NCBI GenBank assembly: GCA_029210695.1
Contig: JARGFH010000008.1
Coordinates: forward strand, 62,001 to 97,326
Reading direction: 5' to 3'
Source: Acidimicrobiia bacterium
GTDB lineage: Bacteria > Actinomycetota > Acidimicrobiia > Spongiisociales > JAHEDJ01
Length of the DNA: 35,326 nt
The position numbers are program-made. Positions 18,001 to 35,326 of the stretch are shown piece after piece; position 1 is the stretch's first letter; each line of letters starts with the position of its first letter.

Positions 18001-21000
18001 CTGTCGCAGGCAGGCGATGCGATTGCCAGGCGGGGATGGCAGCCGGTGCCGGTGAGTGACACGGCGGGCGCCGTGCGGATGATTGCCGAGCGTGGCGACC
18101 CGACGCGGGCCGCGCTTGCTCCGCCTGAGGCGGCCGGGCCGCATGGGCTGGAGATCCTCTTGAGCGACGTCGTGGACAAACTCCACAACACGACGCGCTT
18201 CGTCGTGCTCGAGGCGGGTGACCCTGAGATACCGGCGGACGCCGACAAGTCCAGCGTTGCCTTTGAAACTCTTCACCGCCCGGGTGCTCTAGCGCTGGCA
18301 CTCACCGAGCTCGGCTTGCGGGGTGCCAACCTGACTCGCATCGAATCGCGTCCGACCGAGACGCCGTGGACCTACCGCTTCTTCGTCAATCTTGTCCATC
18401 AGCCGGGCCCCGAAGGTTTCACGGCAGTCTTCGACCCCCACCCGGTGACGATGGCCGAGATCCACCATCTCGGCACCTACCGATCCGAAGTGAGCTGAGT
18501 GAACCCGGCGGCGGCCTGGGATCGAGTCGAGGAGGGCTGGAAGGTGGCCTTCCTTCAAAGCTGGAAGGCATTCTCCCGCAGCTCATTTCCGGTGGGATCG
18601 GCACTGGTCGGTGGAGATGGGGTTGTCCTCGCTAGTGGTCGCAACAGAGTGTTCGACCCGGCCGAGGAGGGTTTGTCGGGATCTCTACTCGCCCATGCAG
18701 AGATCGACTCTCTGAGCCGGTTGTCGGCCGACGAACGACACGACGATGTGACGCTCTTCACGACCCTCGAGCCTTGTGTTTATTGCATGGGAGCAGTTGT
18801 GGTGTCCCGGGTTGGGACCGTCCGGTATGCGGGGGTCGACCTGTACGGTGGCGCGGCGGGCCTCCCGTTGGATCTCAATCAGCAGACTGCTCGCTACCCG
18901 TTGCGCGTCGAAGGGCCCCTGGCCGGCCCCTACGGAACGTGGGCGGCCGTCCTGCCGCTCGTGTTCCTTCTGGGTGCCGACCGCTGGCGACGGGTTGTCG
19001 ACCATGTCGGTCGGGCCGATCCGCGACTCCTGGACACAGCGGGCCGGGTAGGTGAGCTGGCTTCGTTGCTGGATCCGAAGTCAACCAGTCTGGCCGCCGC
19101 GCTCGAAGAGGCCTGGCCGATCCTTCAATAGGGACGGCGACCTACGGCGAATGCCATGATTTGGCCTCCAGTCGAGACCGCTGGTGTCCTCGCCGTTTCG
19201 GGACCATGGGCCCTATGGTGTAGTGGTGATCGCTTCATAATCTCGCGGTGAGACGAGGGGTATTTCATGGATGATATGTCGAACACGCCACCGGACCCGG
19301 AAGACCAAGACGCACTTGAGGTGCCGGAGGCCGAATCCACCGGTTCCGCCGACGATGATTACACCATTCAATCGTTGTACGGCCATCCGCTGGCGGCGCT
19401 GGGCGGGGCAATCATGCTGGCCGGCATCCTGGTCTTCATCGTGCTGCTCGGTCTCGACTACCTCTCGGAGACCGAGAACCCCTATCGGTCACTCGTCGCC
19501 TTCATCGGGGCGCCCGCGATCGGGTTCCTCGGCCTGCTCCTGTTCCTGATTGCCATCCGCGTTCAGGTCTCCTCGGCCAAGCGGCACGGTCAGCACATCC
19601 GCTGGCGGTTGACGATCATCCCGTCGAGCGCCCGCTATATGCGCAACTTGTGGCTGTTCCTGGGCCTCAGCGCCGCGCTTGTCATCATCTTCATCTATGC
19701 AGGGTTCAGGGGGTACGAGGCCACCGAGTCCGTGGCATTCTGCGGAGAGACCTGCCATACAGTGATGGGTCCGCAGATCGAGACCTACGGCGACTCTGCC
19801 CACGCCCGGGTGCCGTGTGTCGAATGCCATATCGGCCCGGGTACCTCATTCTGGGTGCAGTCGAAGATCGACGGTATCCGGCAGGTTGTGGCCGTCGCAC
19901 GGAACTCCTACACCCGGCCGATCCACACGCCGGTGGTGAGCCTCCGGCCTGCTCCAGAGACGTGTGAGCAGTGTCACTGGCCGGAGCAGTTCTACGGCCA
20001 GAAGTTGCAGACGAAGCAGTACTACCGGACCGACGAACAGAACTCGCCGTGGACCATTTCCCTCCTCGTCAACATCGGGGGTGGCAACCCGCAGACGGGC
20101 CGGGCCGAAGGCATCCACTGGCACATGGTCACCGACAGCGTGGTCGAGTACATCGCGGTGGATGAGAAGCGTCAGGACATCCCGTGGTTCCGGGTGACCA
20201 AGCCGGATGGGTCCGTGCAGGTGTATGCCGATCCGACCGCCACGTATCCCGATCCCAACAGCGTGCTCACTGAGAAACGGGTCATGGACTGTGTCGATTG
20301 CCACAACCGCCCGAGCCACAAGTTCACTCCTCCCGCAGTGTCGGTCAACCTCGCTTTGTCGAAGGGCGAGATCTCCGGCGACCTTCCGTTCATCCGTGCA
20401 GTGAGTGTCGACCTGCTCAACGCCGAATACGCAACGCTCGACGAGGCGTTGGCCGGCATCCCGGCCGGCTTGCGGGAGTACTACGAACAGCAGTATCCCG
20501 GGCGGGTCGCAGAACTGACTGAGGACATCGACCAGGCGATCACTGTGCTTCTCGGGATCTACCAGGCCAACTTCTTCCCTGAGATGAACACCGACTACCG
20601 GGCGCGGGAGAACAACCTCAGCCACTTCGTCAACGACGGGTGCTTCCGGTGCCACGGCGGTGACCAGGTCAACGAGGTCGGCGAACCGCTCTCGGCCACC
20701 TGCGACAGCTGTCATGAGATCATCGCGCAGGGCCCGTCTGCGGATCTCAACGAGTTGCAGAACGACATCGCCGGTGTGGACTTCGTTCACCCGCTCGAGA
20801 TCGGCGACATCTGGGAAACGGTGAAGTGCACGCAGTGCCACACCCGGGAGTCCGGCTACTAGGACATGCTCCCTCCAGGGACCCTCGCGCGTCTCTCCCC
20901 ACGGTGGGGGAGACTAAAGAGACGTCTTTCTTCAGGGTGCGTCGTGAACGCGTTTCTCCCCCACGTTCGTGGGGGAGATGTCGAGTCCTAGAGACAGAGG

Positions 21001-33000: not shown

Positions 33001-35326
33001 GAAACCTGACGAGTTTGGTCAAATATCCTCCGCCACCCTAAGAGTAAATCATACCTATTTCGGGCGATTTCGGTAGTGCGATGCGCCCCGTTGATGGGGC
33101 CGAATGGCCCTGTCGCGATAGGGCCATTCCTCAACTTGACGCTGTGTCGGGAAACACATAGAGTGATGAATGAGCCAAGTGCTATCGGCATATTTGACCT
33201 AAAAGGTCTGATTACGTCGAGGTTAGGGATTACGCATCGCCAGGCTTCTTGGCGGCATCGCGATGCGGGTTGCGAGAAACAGAAGGGGAGCATGCAGCTC
33301 CCATGAGTCGGGTTCCGAACCCGACAGGGAGGAGGGCGAATGAGACGGCGATTCAGAACCGTCGGACTCGTTGTGTGTGTAATGGCTGCGATGTTGGTCC
33401 CGGTAACGGGGGCGATGGCGCAGGATGCGAGCAATGTTGGTGATCCAGCTGCCGGGGCAGTTGATCCGCATGGTGGGTACTCGTCGACTACGCAGTTCTG
33501 TCTGCAATGTCATGACGTCCATAATGCAAACGGATCGTACGGTCTCATGGGGGCAGTCAGTGTGACAGCCGTCTGTCAGACTTGCCATGCGTTGCCGAGG
33601 TTGGGTGGAGGCGGAGTAACGGTTCCGAGCCACAATCCAACGCCAAATCTCAACCCCGACGGGTCGGTCAAGACACTCGGTACGACGTCGTCGTTCAGTG
33701 CCTACGACCTAACGGGTGGGGTGGGCGAAGAGCACACGATCGGTGCTACAGACATTGACGGCAACCCGATGACGCAGTCTGCCTACCAATACCGTGGACG
33801 GTTCCTCGGAACCGATTCTGCCGTTGCGGCGGGTGCGGGCACTGCAGGTGAGTACGCCGGCGGTCTTTACTGCGCCAGTTGCCACACGGCACACGGCGAG
33901 TACGGCCAGGTTGTGAATGATCCGGTCGAACCGACGGCAACCAGTCCTGGCGACGAGGGTGTGCACTTCTATCAGGGGAATACGCAACTCTGGTTGGACT
34001 ACTCCGGCGACGCGACAAACCCGAATGCCGACTGGTTCGCATGTGAAGCCGCGGCCGATGTAATGATTGGCACCGGCGTCGGCACCGCCTGTGCGAAGCG
34101 ATTCGACGCGCTGACGATCAACGATGAAGAGGGCAAGCCCTCTTCGCTGTTCGGCTACAAGCTGCTGTCGTCATATCCGAATCACACATGGGGGAGCAAG
34201 TCGAGCTTCAAGTTCGACAACCACGCGCATGATGTATCGGTGTGGTGCTCAAAGTGCCATGATTCGAAGTCGATCGATACTGCGGGCATTCACAATCACC
34301 CGACGGGCTGCCTGGCTTGCCACGGCAACCCTTCGGATGTCGACTCGCGAGGTCGATTCACTGTTGCGACGGCCTTCGACTTCCCGCATACGTCGCCAAA
34401 TGCGGCCTTCCTGCGGGCGTTGCCTGACGCACTCTGCATCAGCTGCCACACGAGGGGAAGCCTGCCGTAGACGACCTGTAACTTACCGACTACCCGAAGT
34501 GGGGAGCCGAAAGGCTCCCCACTTCTCTGTCCCACCCCAAACCCCTTCTTGCGTCACTTCTGGGCGTATAGCGCCCGTGGCTTCAGGTGGTGTGGGCGAC
34601 GGGGTGGCTTTGGAGGTGGGTTGTGGGCCGTCCCAAGATTCCGTGGTTGGTGGCGCGTGAGGCGTTGTTGGCGATAGGCAGGGGTGCAACGATTGATCAG
34701 GCTGCTGTGGTGGCTGGTGTGTCACCGCGGGCGGTTGATCAGCTGGTCAGCGAGCATGGCCGCATGTTGCATTTGGAAGGTCATAAACCGCGGGCTGATG
34801 TGTTGACGGTGGGAGAACGTGAAGTTACGTCCATTGACGTGGTGTACGGGAGGGTCTGAGGGTCCTTCCTTATCGGTGTTCACCGCGTCAGCCTCACGAA
34901 CACGTGCAAGCGAGCGTGAGGAGTAACGCGGTGATCAATAAAAGCATGGACGCGTTGGTGTGGCTGCGCAAGCAGCTCGAGACCGGCGACAACGACTTGC
35001 TGCGTGAGATGGTGCGCAGCTTCGCCGAGGAGTTGATGGGAACCGAAGCGGATGTGGTGTGCGGTGCCGGCTACGGGGAGGTCTCGGTGGACCGGGTCAA
35101 TAGCTGCGGACTGGTTCGTATTTCCCGGACTGGCTCCTGGATGCGAGGACCCGTTCGGAGCGGGCGTTCATCCAAGTCGTCTCGGAAGCCTACGTTCGGG
35201 GCGTTTCCACTCGCAGGGTCGAAGGGCTGGTGGAGGCGTTGGGGATCACGTTGACGCCGCTCGCTGAAATTCCCCAGGGTTGCTCATCGAAATTCCTCAC
35301 CTTGGGTTGGGTTTGGATGCTAGTTG

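Follow-up and report, generated by a model that had tools for sequence, protein, structure and literature searches.

What does a dense array of multihaem cytochrome genes do in an uncultured member of the Acidimicrobiia, and in which direction would electrons move through its products? The array occupies positions 19267-34470 of the window, by which we mean the whole 35,326-nucleotide stretch of DNA analysed, and all 13 of its open reading frames (ORFs) are intact. Counting stop-to-stop ORFs of at least 80 amino acids that contain at least two CXXCH motifs yielded 23 in the 3.9-Mb genome, eight of which lie inside these 15 kb, a concentration beyond chance. With two identical integrase-like ORFs discounted, 21 true multi-CXXCH proteins remain, the same number as in the survey's finding that drew attention to the locus; the eight in the cluster carry 64 c-haem motifs between them. 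Every gene named in that survey was found in place and intact, including the NHL, TPR and PpiC-like genes beside the cytochromes. Its count of four cytochromes in addition to the candidate quinol oxidases has to be raised to five, with 8+1, 10, 10, 11 and 6 haems. Each cluster cytochrome begins with an N-terminal helix or signal peptide, and every one of the haem motifs is kept in the family alignments.

The leftmost gene (19267-20862, forward strand) is predicted from homology to encode a heptahaem inner-membrane quinol oxidase of 531 amino acids. Its product features three N-terminal hydrophobic helices (residues 42-60, 79-97 and 128-146), a CX3CH motif (CGETCH, residues 159-164) and six CXXCH motifs, all invariant in alignment A1, which is the combination described for the ImcH family (PMC6295460, PMC4251993), and it matches Pfam Cytochrom_NNT (2e-08) and the NrfH model (7e-15). 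Furthermore, residues E154, H164, K200, Q206 and Y215, kept in 12 of 12 aligned relatives (E/D at 154, Y/F at 215), stand at a constant offset of +27 from E127, H137, K173, Q179 and Y188, the residues named for haem 1 and the quinol site of Geobacter ImcH (10.1101/2023.05.03.539133). Judged by these features, which include every published family trait that could be tested, the protein is a member of the ImcH family, as the survey had proposed. It shares with Geobacter sulfurreducens ImcH (GSU3259) the three helices, the CX3CH first motif, the six CXXCH motifs, a NapC/NirT-like core, a length of about 500-530 amino acids and the haem-1 pocket residues. Unlike GSU3259, it falls in a separate subclade together with sequences from Ignavibacteriota, Zixibacteria and Calditrichota, with which it shares 53-62% identity; a long branch with 100% support sets this subclade apart from the 51 other sequences sampled. 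It also resides in a monoderm host without periplasmic Ppc-type partners, and its gene adjoins a bc unit, in contrast to the monocistronic gene described for Geobacter (PMC4251993). The imcH gene and the bc operon converge on a spacer (20863-21425) that contains G+C-rich hairpin repeats and a 17-nt tandem repeat of 5.2 copies (21254-21342); this stretch probably acts as a terminator or is a REP-like element.

In Geobacter, ImcH is the menaquinol oxidase for high-potential extracellular acceptors, and CbcL and CbcBA are bc-type menaquinol oxidases for low-potential acceptors. The two reverse-strand genes that follow the spacer resemble the latter type. One (22927-24036) encodes a c subunit with nine CXXCH motifs and hydrophobic segments at residues 8-26 (signal peptide) and 326-344 (C-terminal membrane helix), matching Cytochrome_C7, Paired_CXXCH_1, a DmsE-family model and PDB entry 6r2q_A (2.9e-8). 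Its end overlaps by 50 nt the start of the cytochrome b gene (21426-22976), whose product contains an FdnI-like four-helix dihaem b domain according to family and PDB matches (Ni_hydr_CYTB 1.9e-12, residues 34-218; FdnI models 2.3e-13; PDB 1kqf_C 1.4e-9). The survey's label of a dihaem b subunit fits this domain but leaves out a C-terminal part with two PSCyt1 monohaem c domains (4.2e-13, two stretches) and a fifth helix; the number of PSCyt1 domains in relatives within the order varies from none to more than two. Across 80 loci from different phyla, homologues of the two genes form one fused protein in 31 and are split in 18, and H43, H85, H99, H193 and H208 of cytochrome b are kept in 16-17 of the 17 homologues compared, whether fused or split. 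The comparison bears out the suggestion that the CbcL architecture is present here as two genes, and on sequence grounds we assign the pair as a split CbcL-type bc unit. As in CbcL (GSU0274), an FdnI/HydC-like dihaem b domain comes after nine c haems, two of the five kept histidines lie 15 residues from each other in a single helix, and there are one plus five hydrophobic helices in total, compared with six in CbcL; the differences are the division into two genes and the two extra PSCyt1 c-haem domains of the b subunit. The layout of the unit is also that of CbcA/CbcB, where the c subunit carries a C-terminal helix and the b subunit comes next as a protein of its own (10.1101/2021.04.15.440034). 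As CbcB and the b domain of CbcL are stated in that work to share no sequence homology, it is the fused homologues that place the unit on the CbcL side.

To the right, again on the reverse strand, lies a set of genes for c11, an Rrf2-family regulator, c10b, c10a, c8 and SurA-like, TPR and NHL proteins, which form one translationally coupled operon, with start/stop codon overlaps running from c10b to the TPR gene. The secreted or anchored undecahaem c11 (31520-33022; Paired_CXXCH_1 3.9e-27) has eleven CXXCH motifs, all invariant in alignment A2, and belongs to a family of 47 proteins, mostly labelled Actinomycetota, whose profile matches PDB 6r2q_A (5e-13), 7tfs (8.6e-6) and OmcS (5.9e-5). Three tandem genes with overlapping start and stop codons encode N-terminally anchored cytochromes: the decahaem c10b (29946-30848; ten CXXCH; MtrC/MtrF domain II/IV 1.1e-9; Paired_CXXCH_1), the NapC/NirT-like decahaem c10a (28921-29949; ten CXXCH; NrfH model 5.9e-5; Cytochrom_NNT 3.2e-3), whose look-alikes in the atlas fall in clusters of anchored NapC/NirT-type proteins drawn mainly from Actinomycetota, and c8 (28088-28924), with eight CXXCH motifs plus CSDACH. 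Weak matches under the curated cut-offs characterise the next product as a SurA-N/PpiC-like putative lipoprotein, either a chaperone or a prolyl isomerase (27432-28091; SurA_N_3 5.4e-4; Rotamase_2 1.3e-3; a peptidylprolyl isomerase model at 7.7e-9); its ATG at 28091 overlaps the preceding stop, and it has a lipobox-like APAC. It is followed by the N-terminally anchored CcmH/CycH(NrfG)-like TPR protein (26789-27445; helix 17-35), which matches TPR families including TPR_CcmH_CycH (6.7e-11; 42.7 bits, cut-off 42), and by an N-terminally anchored NHL-repeat beta-propeller (25590-26780; NHL 8.6e-22; six-bladed propeller families; helix 40-58). The Rrf2 regulator (30910-31356; Rrf2 1.8e-26), absent from the earlier gene list, has a Cys-rich C-terminal part and under-cut-off matches to the SUF regulator, RirA, IscR and NsrR models.

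Divergent from c11 is the gene for c6 (33340-34470, forward strand), a secreted hexahaem protein with six CXXCH motifs and a remote likeness to OmcS. The best PDB match of its profile (A3) is OmcS, 6ef8_A (1.9e-6, 30.5 bits, bias 16.8), followed by 7tfs_A, which we take to be the OmcE filament, and 9yuq_N. The alignment pairs profile positions 57-316 with OmcS residues 7-259 and keeps four haem motifs collinear, a weak match that is driven partly by the haem motifs themselves; the AlphaFold2 models obtained for c11 and c6 were of too low a quality for judging folds. c6 is a hexahaem protein of similar size to OmcS with the CxxCHxxH first motif in register, but its motifs 4-6 are spaced differently from those of OmcS and OmcE of Geobacter and Desulfuromonas. 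A propeller protein and further cytochromes are encoded near c6, as in the OmcE loci, which are described as containing two cytochromes, two propeller lipoproteins, a filament subunit and a beta-barrel (PMC13712944). Unlike the OmcS/OmcE loci, the cluster has no beta-barrel or glycosylation cluster, and nothing points to polymerisation of c6. An OmcS homologue has previously been noted in an actinobacterium (PMC7399161).

The survey took an insertion sequence to split the island. This ISL3-family element (24170-25560, reverse strand; transposase 24179-25459, transpos_ISL3 9.5e-83) is bounded by 29-nt terminal inverted repeats (24170-24198 and 25532-25560). The congener G027 keeps the order c6 / c11-rrf2-c10b-c10a-c8-surA-TPR-NHL-nonahaem-cytochrome b without it; there, the NHL-nonahaem spacer measures 163 bp and homology resumes at window position 24165. 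The element is a recent insertion into the intergenic spacer of one cluster. A decaying or newly imported, IS-flanked mobile island without present function could be imagined from this element, from a transposase-like fragment at the contig end (34904-35254) and from the identity to G027, which is 39-54% for the block from c10a to NHL and for c6 compared with 88-96% for flanking genes and suggests cassette exchange. We regard such an origin as highly improbable: all ORFs are intact with their haem motifs kept, the insertion is intergenic, the G+C content of 0.58-0.68 is like that of the genome (0.63), the left module keeps its synteny with housekeeping genes throughout the genus, and the order's ImcH sequences form one clade with 96% SH-like support. 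The right-hand operon is also kept in a genus of another family, g6.

At class level ImcH was detected in 11 of 301 genomes, all within the order, consistent with the restricted range the survey had reported. Within the order, the ImcH and bc pair is not rare, being present, always side by side, in about one-fifth of the sampled genomes (42/201), and Paired_CXXCH_1, put earlier at roughly one genome in 80, was recovered by six-frame search in 39 of 201. In all 10 neighbourhoods compared from the order, imcH adjoins the bc unit, and the linkage recurs in many phyla (49 of 80 loci). The right-hand operon is confined to 5 of the 201 order genomes, and 37 of the 42 ImcH-positive genomes are without the c11 operon; therefore, the quinol oxidases must as a rule operate with other partners.

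By composition, the right-hand operon comes closest to the uet cluster of 'Ca. Tenderia electrophaga', which has the same kinds of parts: an undecahaem (UetJ), a PPIase (UetB), NHL proteins (UetH/I) and an NrfG-like TPR protein (10.1101/2022.05.06.490989). Multihaems with propeller- or PPIase-type partners are likewise described for the occ, SEEP-SRB1 and D. ferrophilus operons (10.1101/695007, PMC5539420, PMC5815863), that of SEEP-SRB1 comprising a propeller, two cytochromes and a PPIase (PMC5539420), and the accessory PPIase-like, TPR and NHL genes match a cassette that recurs beside extracellular cytochromes in diderms. Unlike uet/occ-type operons, the cluster has no trihaem c7 carriers, no cupredoxin and no beta-barrel porin (no porin or beta-barrel family match among the 13 cluster proteins); all its parts are anchored or secreted, in a monoderm host, and it is joined to quinol oxidases. 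It is like the Gram-positive pathways of Thermincola and Carboxydothermus in combining, in a monoderm, anchored quinol-oxidising multihaems with wall or surface multihaems. Compared by description with the papers on these genera and on Coriobacteriia, it has ImcH and a CbcL-type unit instead of the quinol oxidases named there, and its host belongs to the Acidimicrobiia, unlike Coriobacteriales S27 and Parvivirga. We found no paper ascribing such a system to this order or class, in line with the survey's claim of novelty; in Actinomycetota, however, multihaem-based iron or electrode reduction has already been reported, for Coriobacteriia (PMC7399161, PMC9686372), including Fe(III) reduction by an isolate with 17 multihaems (PMC9686372).

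The survey read the locus as the gene set expected for extracellular electron transfer. Its content, homology and synteny fit that reading, whereas function, direction and acceptor we infer from homology and synteny. We consider it rather probable that the cluster moves menaquinol electrons outward through the envelope to an extracellular acceptor. Because of the homology and the conserved residues, the ImcH-family cytochrome and the CbcL-type bc unit would be alternative entries, each oxidising menaquinol on the outer side of the membrane. Electrons would then pass the three paralogous anchored cytochromes (10, 10 and 8+1 haems) at the membrane's outer face and continue, within the wall or beyond it, to the secreted 11-haem protein and the OmcS-like protein with 6 haems. 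By parallel with other systems, the SurA/PPIase-like lipoprotein, the CcmH/NrfG-like TPR protein and the NHL propeller may mature, scaffold or anchor the cytochromes, and the Rrf2 protein may control the operon on an iron, redox or NO signal. The locus would then represent a known kind of electron-export system in a new lineage and layout.

The same hardware might instead run inward, passing electrons supplied by Fe(II), by a cathode-like mineral or by a partner cell to the quinone pool, oxidases or nitrate reductase. The analogous uet cluster has been proposed for uptake (10.1101/2022.05.06.490989, PMC9900912), CbcL/MtoC-family homologues are also described in Fe(II) oxidisers (PMC6295460), which counts against export, and the genome offers electron sinks in three COX1 matches (haem-copper oxidases) and NarG, all above cut-off, so that the organism does not need an extracellular acceptor. 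We nevertheless think this direction unlikely, as ImcH homologues have, in the account of PMC6295460, so far been implicated in quinol oxidation only, the cluster contains no Cyc2-type or cupredoxin gene, and RuBisCO large subunit, to which the search for CO2 fixation was limited, was not found in the 97.85%-complete genome.

NapC/NirT-type and bc-type quinol dehydrogenases often serve reductases of soluble substrates, the NapC/NirT family classically those of the periplasm, and c10a and ImcH both match the NrfH model. The cluster could accordingly be pictured as a membrane-surface electron-distribution network feeding soluble-substrate reductases elsewhere, or as an electron store or capacitor, to which we assign a small chance. 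An anchored octahaem on contig C66 is a possible reductase fed in this way, other cytochromes are also encoded away from the locus, and the many ImcH-positive genomes without the c11 operon point in the same direction. However, no catalytic reductase is encoded within the 15 kb, and a genome search returned no NrfA-class reductase above cut-off. The conserved association with two secreted cytochromes, of 11 and 6 haems, and with NHL, PPIase-like and TPR proteins fits extracellular-cytochrome loci as described, and Geobacter is reported to need ImcH and CbcL genetically for extracellular acceptors (PMC4251993, 10.1101/2021.04.15.440034), both of which count against this reading. Two further points in favour of electron export are a haem-biosynthesis operon directly upstream of the cluster and Ccm system I elsewhere in the genome; the latter and two multihaem proteins, a pentahaem and a decahaem, were found on contig C94, where the survey had placed them.

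All of the genes named in the survey's finding are present and intact within positions 19267-34470 of the window, and they form a real and coherent cluster that on balance is probably a module for extracellular electron transfer. With gene limits refined by start-codon context, the imcH-like gene (19267-20862, forward strand) converges across a 563-bp spacer (20863-21425) on the genes for a cytochrome b subunit (21426-22976, reverse) and a nonahaem c subunit (22927-24036, reverse), beyond which lies an ISL3 element (24170-25560). The right-hand operon, on the reverse strand, encodes an NHL protein (25590-26780), a TPR protein (26789-27445), a SurA/PpiC-like putative lipoprotein (27432-28091), the cytochromes c8 (28088-28924), c10a (28921-29949) and c10b (29946-30848), an Rrf2 regulator (30910-31356) between c11 and c10b, and c11 (31520-33022); the gene for c6 (33340-34470) is on the forward strand, and the window ends with the contig. 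Codons overlap along the right-hand operon. The further cytochromes, originally counted as four, are five, with 28088-30848 holding three tandem paralogues (c8, c10a and c10b), each with a start codon that overlaps the stop before it (ATGA or GTGA) and with one N-terminal hydrophobic helix. The island contains 64 c-type haem motifs (7 + 2 + 9 + 9 + 10 + 10 + 11 + 6) and eight of the 23 ORFs with at least two CXXCH motifs found genome-wide among stop-to-stop ORFs of at least 80 aa; the 21 multi-CXXCH proteins listed before are these 23 minus two identical integrase-like ORFs. The G+C content of the island (0.58-0.68) is similar to that of the genome (0.63). No Rfam family reached its gathering score anywhere in the window, and promoter and terminator scans gave counts at or below the shuffled expectation. 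The convergent spacer contains a 17-nt unit repeated 5.2 times with 98% match (21254-21342), the exact first unit of which is unique in the genome, and around it stand several hairpins rich in G+C (CTCCCCCAC...GTGGGGGAG), a type with nine strict copies on six contigs of the genome.

The ImcH-like protein has the helices, haem motifs and NapC/NirT-like core described for its family. Excerpts of two studies (PMC6295460, PMC4251993) describe ImcH proteins of about 495-519 aa with three N-terminal helices, a NapC/NirT-like region, an atypical CX3CH near the membrane domain and six CX2CH motifs. In the window protein, hydropathy peaks at residues 42-60, 79-97 and 128-146 mark three helices, and CGETCH (159-164) and six CXXCH motifs are invariant in all 12 sequences of an alignment that includes Zixibacteria, 'Gammaproteobacteria' and Acidobacteriota-labelled proteins. 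A NapC/NirT/NrfH-like core spans the third helix and the first haems, with a Cytochrom_NNT match at residues 129-214 (2e-08, 34.6 bits against a cut-off of 24.1); the NrfH model matches at 7e-15, under its equivalog cut-off, and a single-sequence PDB search returned NrfH 2j7a_C alone (E 0.018). E154, H164, K200, Q206 and Y215 are conserved in the same alignment. Relative to the haem-1 and menaquinol-site residues of Geobacter ImcH given in the available part of 10.1101/2023.05.03.539133 (E127, H137, K173, Q179 and Y188), they show a constant offset of +27, a correspondence of numbering rather than of direct alignment that is suggestive of the same site. The 36.8% identity to Geobacter ImcH reported initially lies inside the published span of 31.5-49% for ImcH homologues of other bacteria, and second-tier relatives stand at 36-45%. 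Geobacter ImcH oxidises menaquinol and is needed for high-potential extracellular acceptors, a function that we predict from sequence for the window protein.

Next to imcH, the cytochrome b and nonahaem genes have the content of CbcL, whose c domain is N-terminal and extracytoplasmic, with nine CXXCH motifs in Geobacter and 3-23 in homologues. The nonahaem subunit likewise has nine CXXCH motifs, and the b subunit has a HydC/FdnI-like dihaem b domain (Ni_hydr_CYTB 1.9e-12, over cut-off; two FdnI models at 2.3e-13 and 4.5e-12, both under cut-off; PDB 1kqf_C 1.4e-9) in which H43, H85, H99, H193 and H208 each recur in 16-17 of the 17 homologues compared, fused and split alike. The survey's description of a dihaem b subunit thus holds for the FdnI-like part, but the protein also carries an extra hydrophobic helix (264-282) and two PSCyt1 monohaem c domains (4.2e-13). 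FdnI has both its N- and C-termini inside; with that topology, the extra helix would place the PSCyt1 domains outside, where c-haem attachment is possible. One helix is seen in the c subunit and, by simple hydropathy, two in the b subunit, where the FdnI match implies four plus one; published CbcL has six transmembrane helices in total. CbcL is a single polypeptide, and the window pair is encoded by two genes overlapping by 50 nt; we therefore file it as a split CbcL variant. Text from 10.1101/2021.04.15.440034 lists five candidate b-haem histidines for CbcL, two of them forming an FdnI-like pair within a single helix. It portrays CbcA/CbcB as two polypeptides, a c subunit ending in a C-terminal helix and a four-helix b subunit, and also notes split b and c clusters in Geobacter. 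The window pair accordingly combines CbcL-type content with a CbcA/CbcB-type layout.

The association of imcH with such a unit extends well beyond the window. In all ten order neighbourhoods fetched, imcH adjoins a c-b pair, either convergently or in one operon c-b-imcH, and in these relatives the b subunit sometimes has no PSCyt1 domains. Both bc-unit proteins were compared by tblastn with 80 loci of other species, all carrying a gene for an ImcH relative (L030-L109; the best 80 kept, with 598 of 600 matched stretches confirmed). Both parts were found near imcH in 49 of the 80, within a few kb and mostly less than 500 bp away; an ORF test assigned 31 of these to the fused form and 18 to the split form, and many of the 31 loci outside the 49 are short contigs. 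Fused homologues have 9-19 haems and then four to five detected hydrophobic helices after the c domain. Linkage was seen in Ignavibacteriota, Acidobacteriota, Bacteroidota, Omnitrophota, Zixibacteria, Gemmatimonadota and other groups, and outside Geobacter it seems to be the usual arrangement. Accessible sections of PMC6295460 place imcH often beside c-cytochrome genes; in the portions of the literature at hand there is no statement of imcH-cbcL adjacency, and Figures 5-7 and Tables S2 and S3 of that paper may show neighbours and actinobacterial homologues. The occurrence beside a CbcL-type unit in 49 of 80 loci means that the pair may be a better genomic marker of this kind of respiration than either of the two genes by itself.

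Within the class, the earlier statement that ImcH is confined to the order is borne out by 11 of 301 class-wide genomes at E <= 1e-30, all in the order. Inside the order, 42 of the 201 genomes sampled had a match to the query at E <= 1e-3, strong in about 40; they are distributed over eight of 12 families, for example 19 of 20 genomes in family f6 and four of six in the own genus. The count of six in 485 order genomes for Paired_CXXCH_1 was not reproduced, our six-frame search finding this domain in 39 of 201, 31 of which are also ImcH-positive by comparison of the two lists. Four f6 genomes (G006, G018, G028 and G038) each have two full-length ImcH paralogues on different contigs, with 55-58% identity to the query. 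With 4352 proteins at E <= 1e-20 out of 8000 candidates scored, the wider family is very large. A FastTree phylogeny was built from 85 sequences, namely the window protein and those loci whose match spans 440 residues or more, with shorter ones discarded, and is an unrooted tree drawn at the midpoint with SH-like supports only. Actinobacterial ImcH proteins form one side of a branch with 96% support; their neighbours are a group of Ignavibacteriota, Zixibacteria and Calditrichota, and a long branch with 100% support separates actinobacterial and neighbour sequences from the remaining 51. As the tree is unrooted, we name no donor.

The right-hand operon is much rarer. c11 was found in five of 201 order genomes, namely the source genome, its congener G027 and three members of genus g6 in family f6 (G006, G018 and G038); NHL relatives with more than 50% identity occur in the same five, and in 17 of 201 at E <= 1e-10. 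Two further congeners (G005 and G017) have only the left module, imcH with the bc unit. In genus g6, the full operon lies on another contig and a reduced copy (c6, c10b, SurA and NHL) adjoins imcH-b-c; two NHL gene copies are present in this genus. The c11 family is small (47 proteins at E <= 1e-5 among 8000 scored), and its named members carry Actinomycetota, Dehalococcoidia and Coriobacteriia labels, and a single bin is labelled 'Gammaproteobacteria'; many are of greater length and contain Ig/fn3-like parts, and the 11 haem motifs are invariant in 28 aligned sequences. A single-sequence PDB search with c11 gave nothing relevant. As a lead only, c10a is closest to Atlas clusters of anchored multihaems of the NapC/NirT type, about 300-390 aa long and for the most part from Actinomycetota. 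For c6, 185 cluster representatives were found at E <= 1e-3 among 1.84 billion, with relatives named only 'hypothetical' or 'predicted CXXCH cytochrome'. The three best PDB matches of the c6 profile are 6ef8_A 'C-type cytochrome OmcS' (1.9e-6), 7tfs_A (2.5e-4) and 9yuq_N (4.2e-4), and the c6 sequence by itself finds 7tfs_A alone (3.8e-4), which we take to be the OmcE filament; a further entry, 6r2q_A, is mislabelled in the table and is presumably MtrA. The OmcS match is weak, covering one stretch (OmcS residues 7-259) with four of six haem motifs collinear. AlphaFold2 models of c11 and c6, made from their alignments, had mean pLDDT values of 50.0 and 51.5, too poor for fold comparison. Among the helpers, the NHL protein matches its family at 8.6e-22, the TPR protein matches TPR_CcmH_CycH at 42.7 bits, barely over the cut-off of 42, and the SurA/PPIase assignment rests on SurA_N_3, Rotamase_2 and a PPIase model that all score under their curated cut-offs.

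This combination of multihaem cytochromes, NHL protein, PPIase and maturation-type TPR protein is that of a uet-type cassette, with the PPIase part below cut-off. As outlined in sections of 10.1101/2022.05.06.490989 and PMC9900912, the uet cluster encodes an undecahaem UetJ, the PPIase UetB, the NHL proteins UetH/I, an NrfG-like TPR protein and a porin; ANME-partner bacteria have a common operon of a propeller, 16- and 26-haem cytochromes and a PPIase (PMC5539420, in part), and NHL proteins stand beside surface cytochromes in D. ferrophilus (PMC5815863) and the occ cluster (10.1101/695007), again in the extracts available. Compared with the uet, ANME-partner, occ and D. ferrophilus loci, the window operon has the same cast without any beta-barrel. 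No porin or beta-barrel family that could form an outer-membrane conduit was matched among the 13 island proteins. The order is placed in Actinomycetota, and Acidimicrobiia are monoderm, so that the absence of a beta-barrel is expected.

Comparison with G027 bears on the integrity of the cluster, which according to the survey's finding is split by an ISL3 transposase. In G027, the order is c6, then c11-rrf2-c10b-c10a-c8-surA-TPR-NHL-nona-cytb, with a 163-bp spacer between the NHL and nonahaem genes and no insertion sequence. Nucleotide homology to G027 restarts at window position 24165, and the ISL3 element is bounded by 29-nt terminal inverted repeats (24170-24198 and 25532-25560). The element is therefore better described as a recent insertion into one cluster, and on the same observations we reject the reading that it marks the border of two independent islands. 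It is single-copy in the assembly, save for a partial copy on contig C104 that is 79% identical. At the contig end, an ORF (34904-35254, forward) has transposase-N-terminus-like text and no Pfam match at 1e-5; with ISL3, insertion sequences thus flank the right-hand operon on both sides.

Divergence between the two congeners is mosaic. At the amino-acid level, identity is high for the nonahaem subunit (96%), cytochrome b (93%), ImcH (95%), Rrf2 (96%), c11 (88%) and c10b (80%), and low for c10a (47%), c8 (42%), SurA (43%), TPR (46%), NHL (54%) and c6 (39%). In nucleotide comparison with the G027 locus (L110), the conserved blocks share 87-91% identity, and the intervening DNA drops to 66-68% or is undetectable, the diverged stretches of the window being 28921-30043, 25590-28924 and 33424-34470. 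This pattern suggests that the parts presumed to face outward were replaced as cassettes or diversified strongly.

A bolder reading, which we regard as unlikely, is that the right-hand operon is a monoderm cytochrome-filament system with cassette exchange, combined with an ancestral linked imcH-cbcL unit that spread between phyla. An OmcS-like c6 would then polymerise into a conductive fibre across the actinobacterial wall, the related 11-haem c11 would perhaps prime or anchor it, and the SurA-like lipoprotein, the TPR protein and the NHL propeller would act as porin-free assembly machinery. OmcS-type cytochromes polymerise head to tail with inter-subunit His ligation. The three best PDB matches of the c6 profile are 6ef8_A 'C-type cytochrome OmcS' (1.9e-6), 7tfs_A (2.5e-4) and 9yuq_N (4.2e-4), and the c6 sequence by itself finds 7tfs_A alone (3.8e-4), which we take to be the OmcE filament; a further entry, 6r2q_A, is mislabelled in the table and is presumably MtrA. 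The OmcS match is weak, covering one stretch (OmcS residues 7-259) with four of six haem motifs collinear. The surface parts (the c10a-to-NHL block and c6) would be swapped as cassettes among close relatives. In the same proposal, imcH and cbcL would form an ancestral two-potential quinol-oxidase unit, with Geobacter, where they are unlinked, as the exception.

The more cautious reading of a predicted extracellular electron-transfer module is our preferred one. The searched extracts on Acidimicrobiia multihaems, extracellular electron transfer, ImcH and Spongiisociales assign no such genes to Acidimicrobiia. The consulted passages of PMC6295460 list ImcH homologues in 12 phyla and CbcL homologues in 15, with Intrasporangium supplying one actinobacterial ImcH that has a single helix, and those of PMC7399161 and PMC9686372 describe multihaem-rich Coriobacteriia, one with an OmcS homologue and one an Fe(III)-reducing isolate. 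Four aspects look new: the lineage, a split CbcL bearing extra c domains, an operon of cytochromes, PPIase-like, TPR and NHL proteins that lacks a porin and is joined to quinol oxidases, and the mosaic divergence between the congeners. Sediments hold abundant Acidimicrobiia, most of them uncultured, and the order has no assigned role in mineral or partner-cell electron exchange; a complete and contiguous route leading from quinol oxidases via anchored relay cytochromes to secreted ones, with helper proteins, would make such a role testable. The cluster also presents a diderm cytochrome, PPIase and propeller cassette where no outer membrane needs crossing, a comparison that helps to tell porin-related from cytochrome-assembly parts.

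In the genome (completeness 97.85%), three COX1 matches and NarG score over cut-off, and neither RuBisCO nor NrfA does. Such a background suits a facultative anaerobe that can optionally send electrons outward more than it does an autotrophic iron oxidiser, and electron uptake is a less likely possibility. A path in which ImcH and the bc unit feed NrfA was rejected, there being no Cytochrom_C552 match over cut-off. A complete haem-biosynthesis operon (7780-17452, reverse) lies 1.8 kb upstream of imcH and is syntenic in G005 and G017; it encodes an amine-oxidase-type HemY-like protein, ferrochelatase, a HemN-like radical SAM protein, URO-D, ALAD, HemD, PBG deaminase and GluTR. An N-terminal stretch of 370 aa in the URO-D ORF has no Pfam match and overlaps the preceding ORF, and just past the operon a gene at 6428-7573 (reverse) encodes an EB_dh (ethylbenzene-dehydrogenase-type haem-binding) domain (1.4e-41).

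The Ccm system I and two multihaem proteins placed earlier on contig C94 were found there, the latter as a pentahaem and a decahaem protein. In this region (C94:43000-61365, L114), the Ccm genes (CcmA, B, C, F and H with a thioredoxin-like gene) are preceded by two bc gene sets of the cytochrome b6 type, in which one b C-terminal subunit (795 aa) is fused to some eight monohaem c domains, PSCyt1 among them; downstream are the pentahaem protein, C-terminally anchored, and the decahaem protein, a 717-aa lipoprotein of two repeated halves. Elsewhere, C156:12653-14200 and C169:189-2054 encode long proteins with five or six class-I monohaem c domains each and Thr/Pro-rich linkers, one with a C-terminal membrane anchor. 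C151:181-1257 encodes a hexahaem lipoprotein with a collagen-like GPAGPAGPAG after the lipobox, and C66:17254-18942 an octahaem protein with a Thr-rich linker and a C-terminal anchor. The identical 588-codon ORFs at C96:46882-48645 and C155:3058-4821, with two CXXCH motifs in a Cys-rich N-terminus and an integrase-like C-terminus, are probably a repeated mobile element and not cytochromes.
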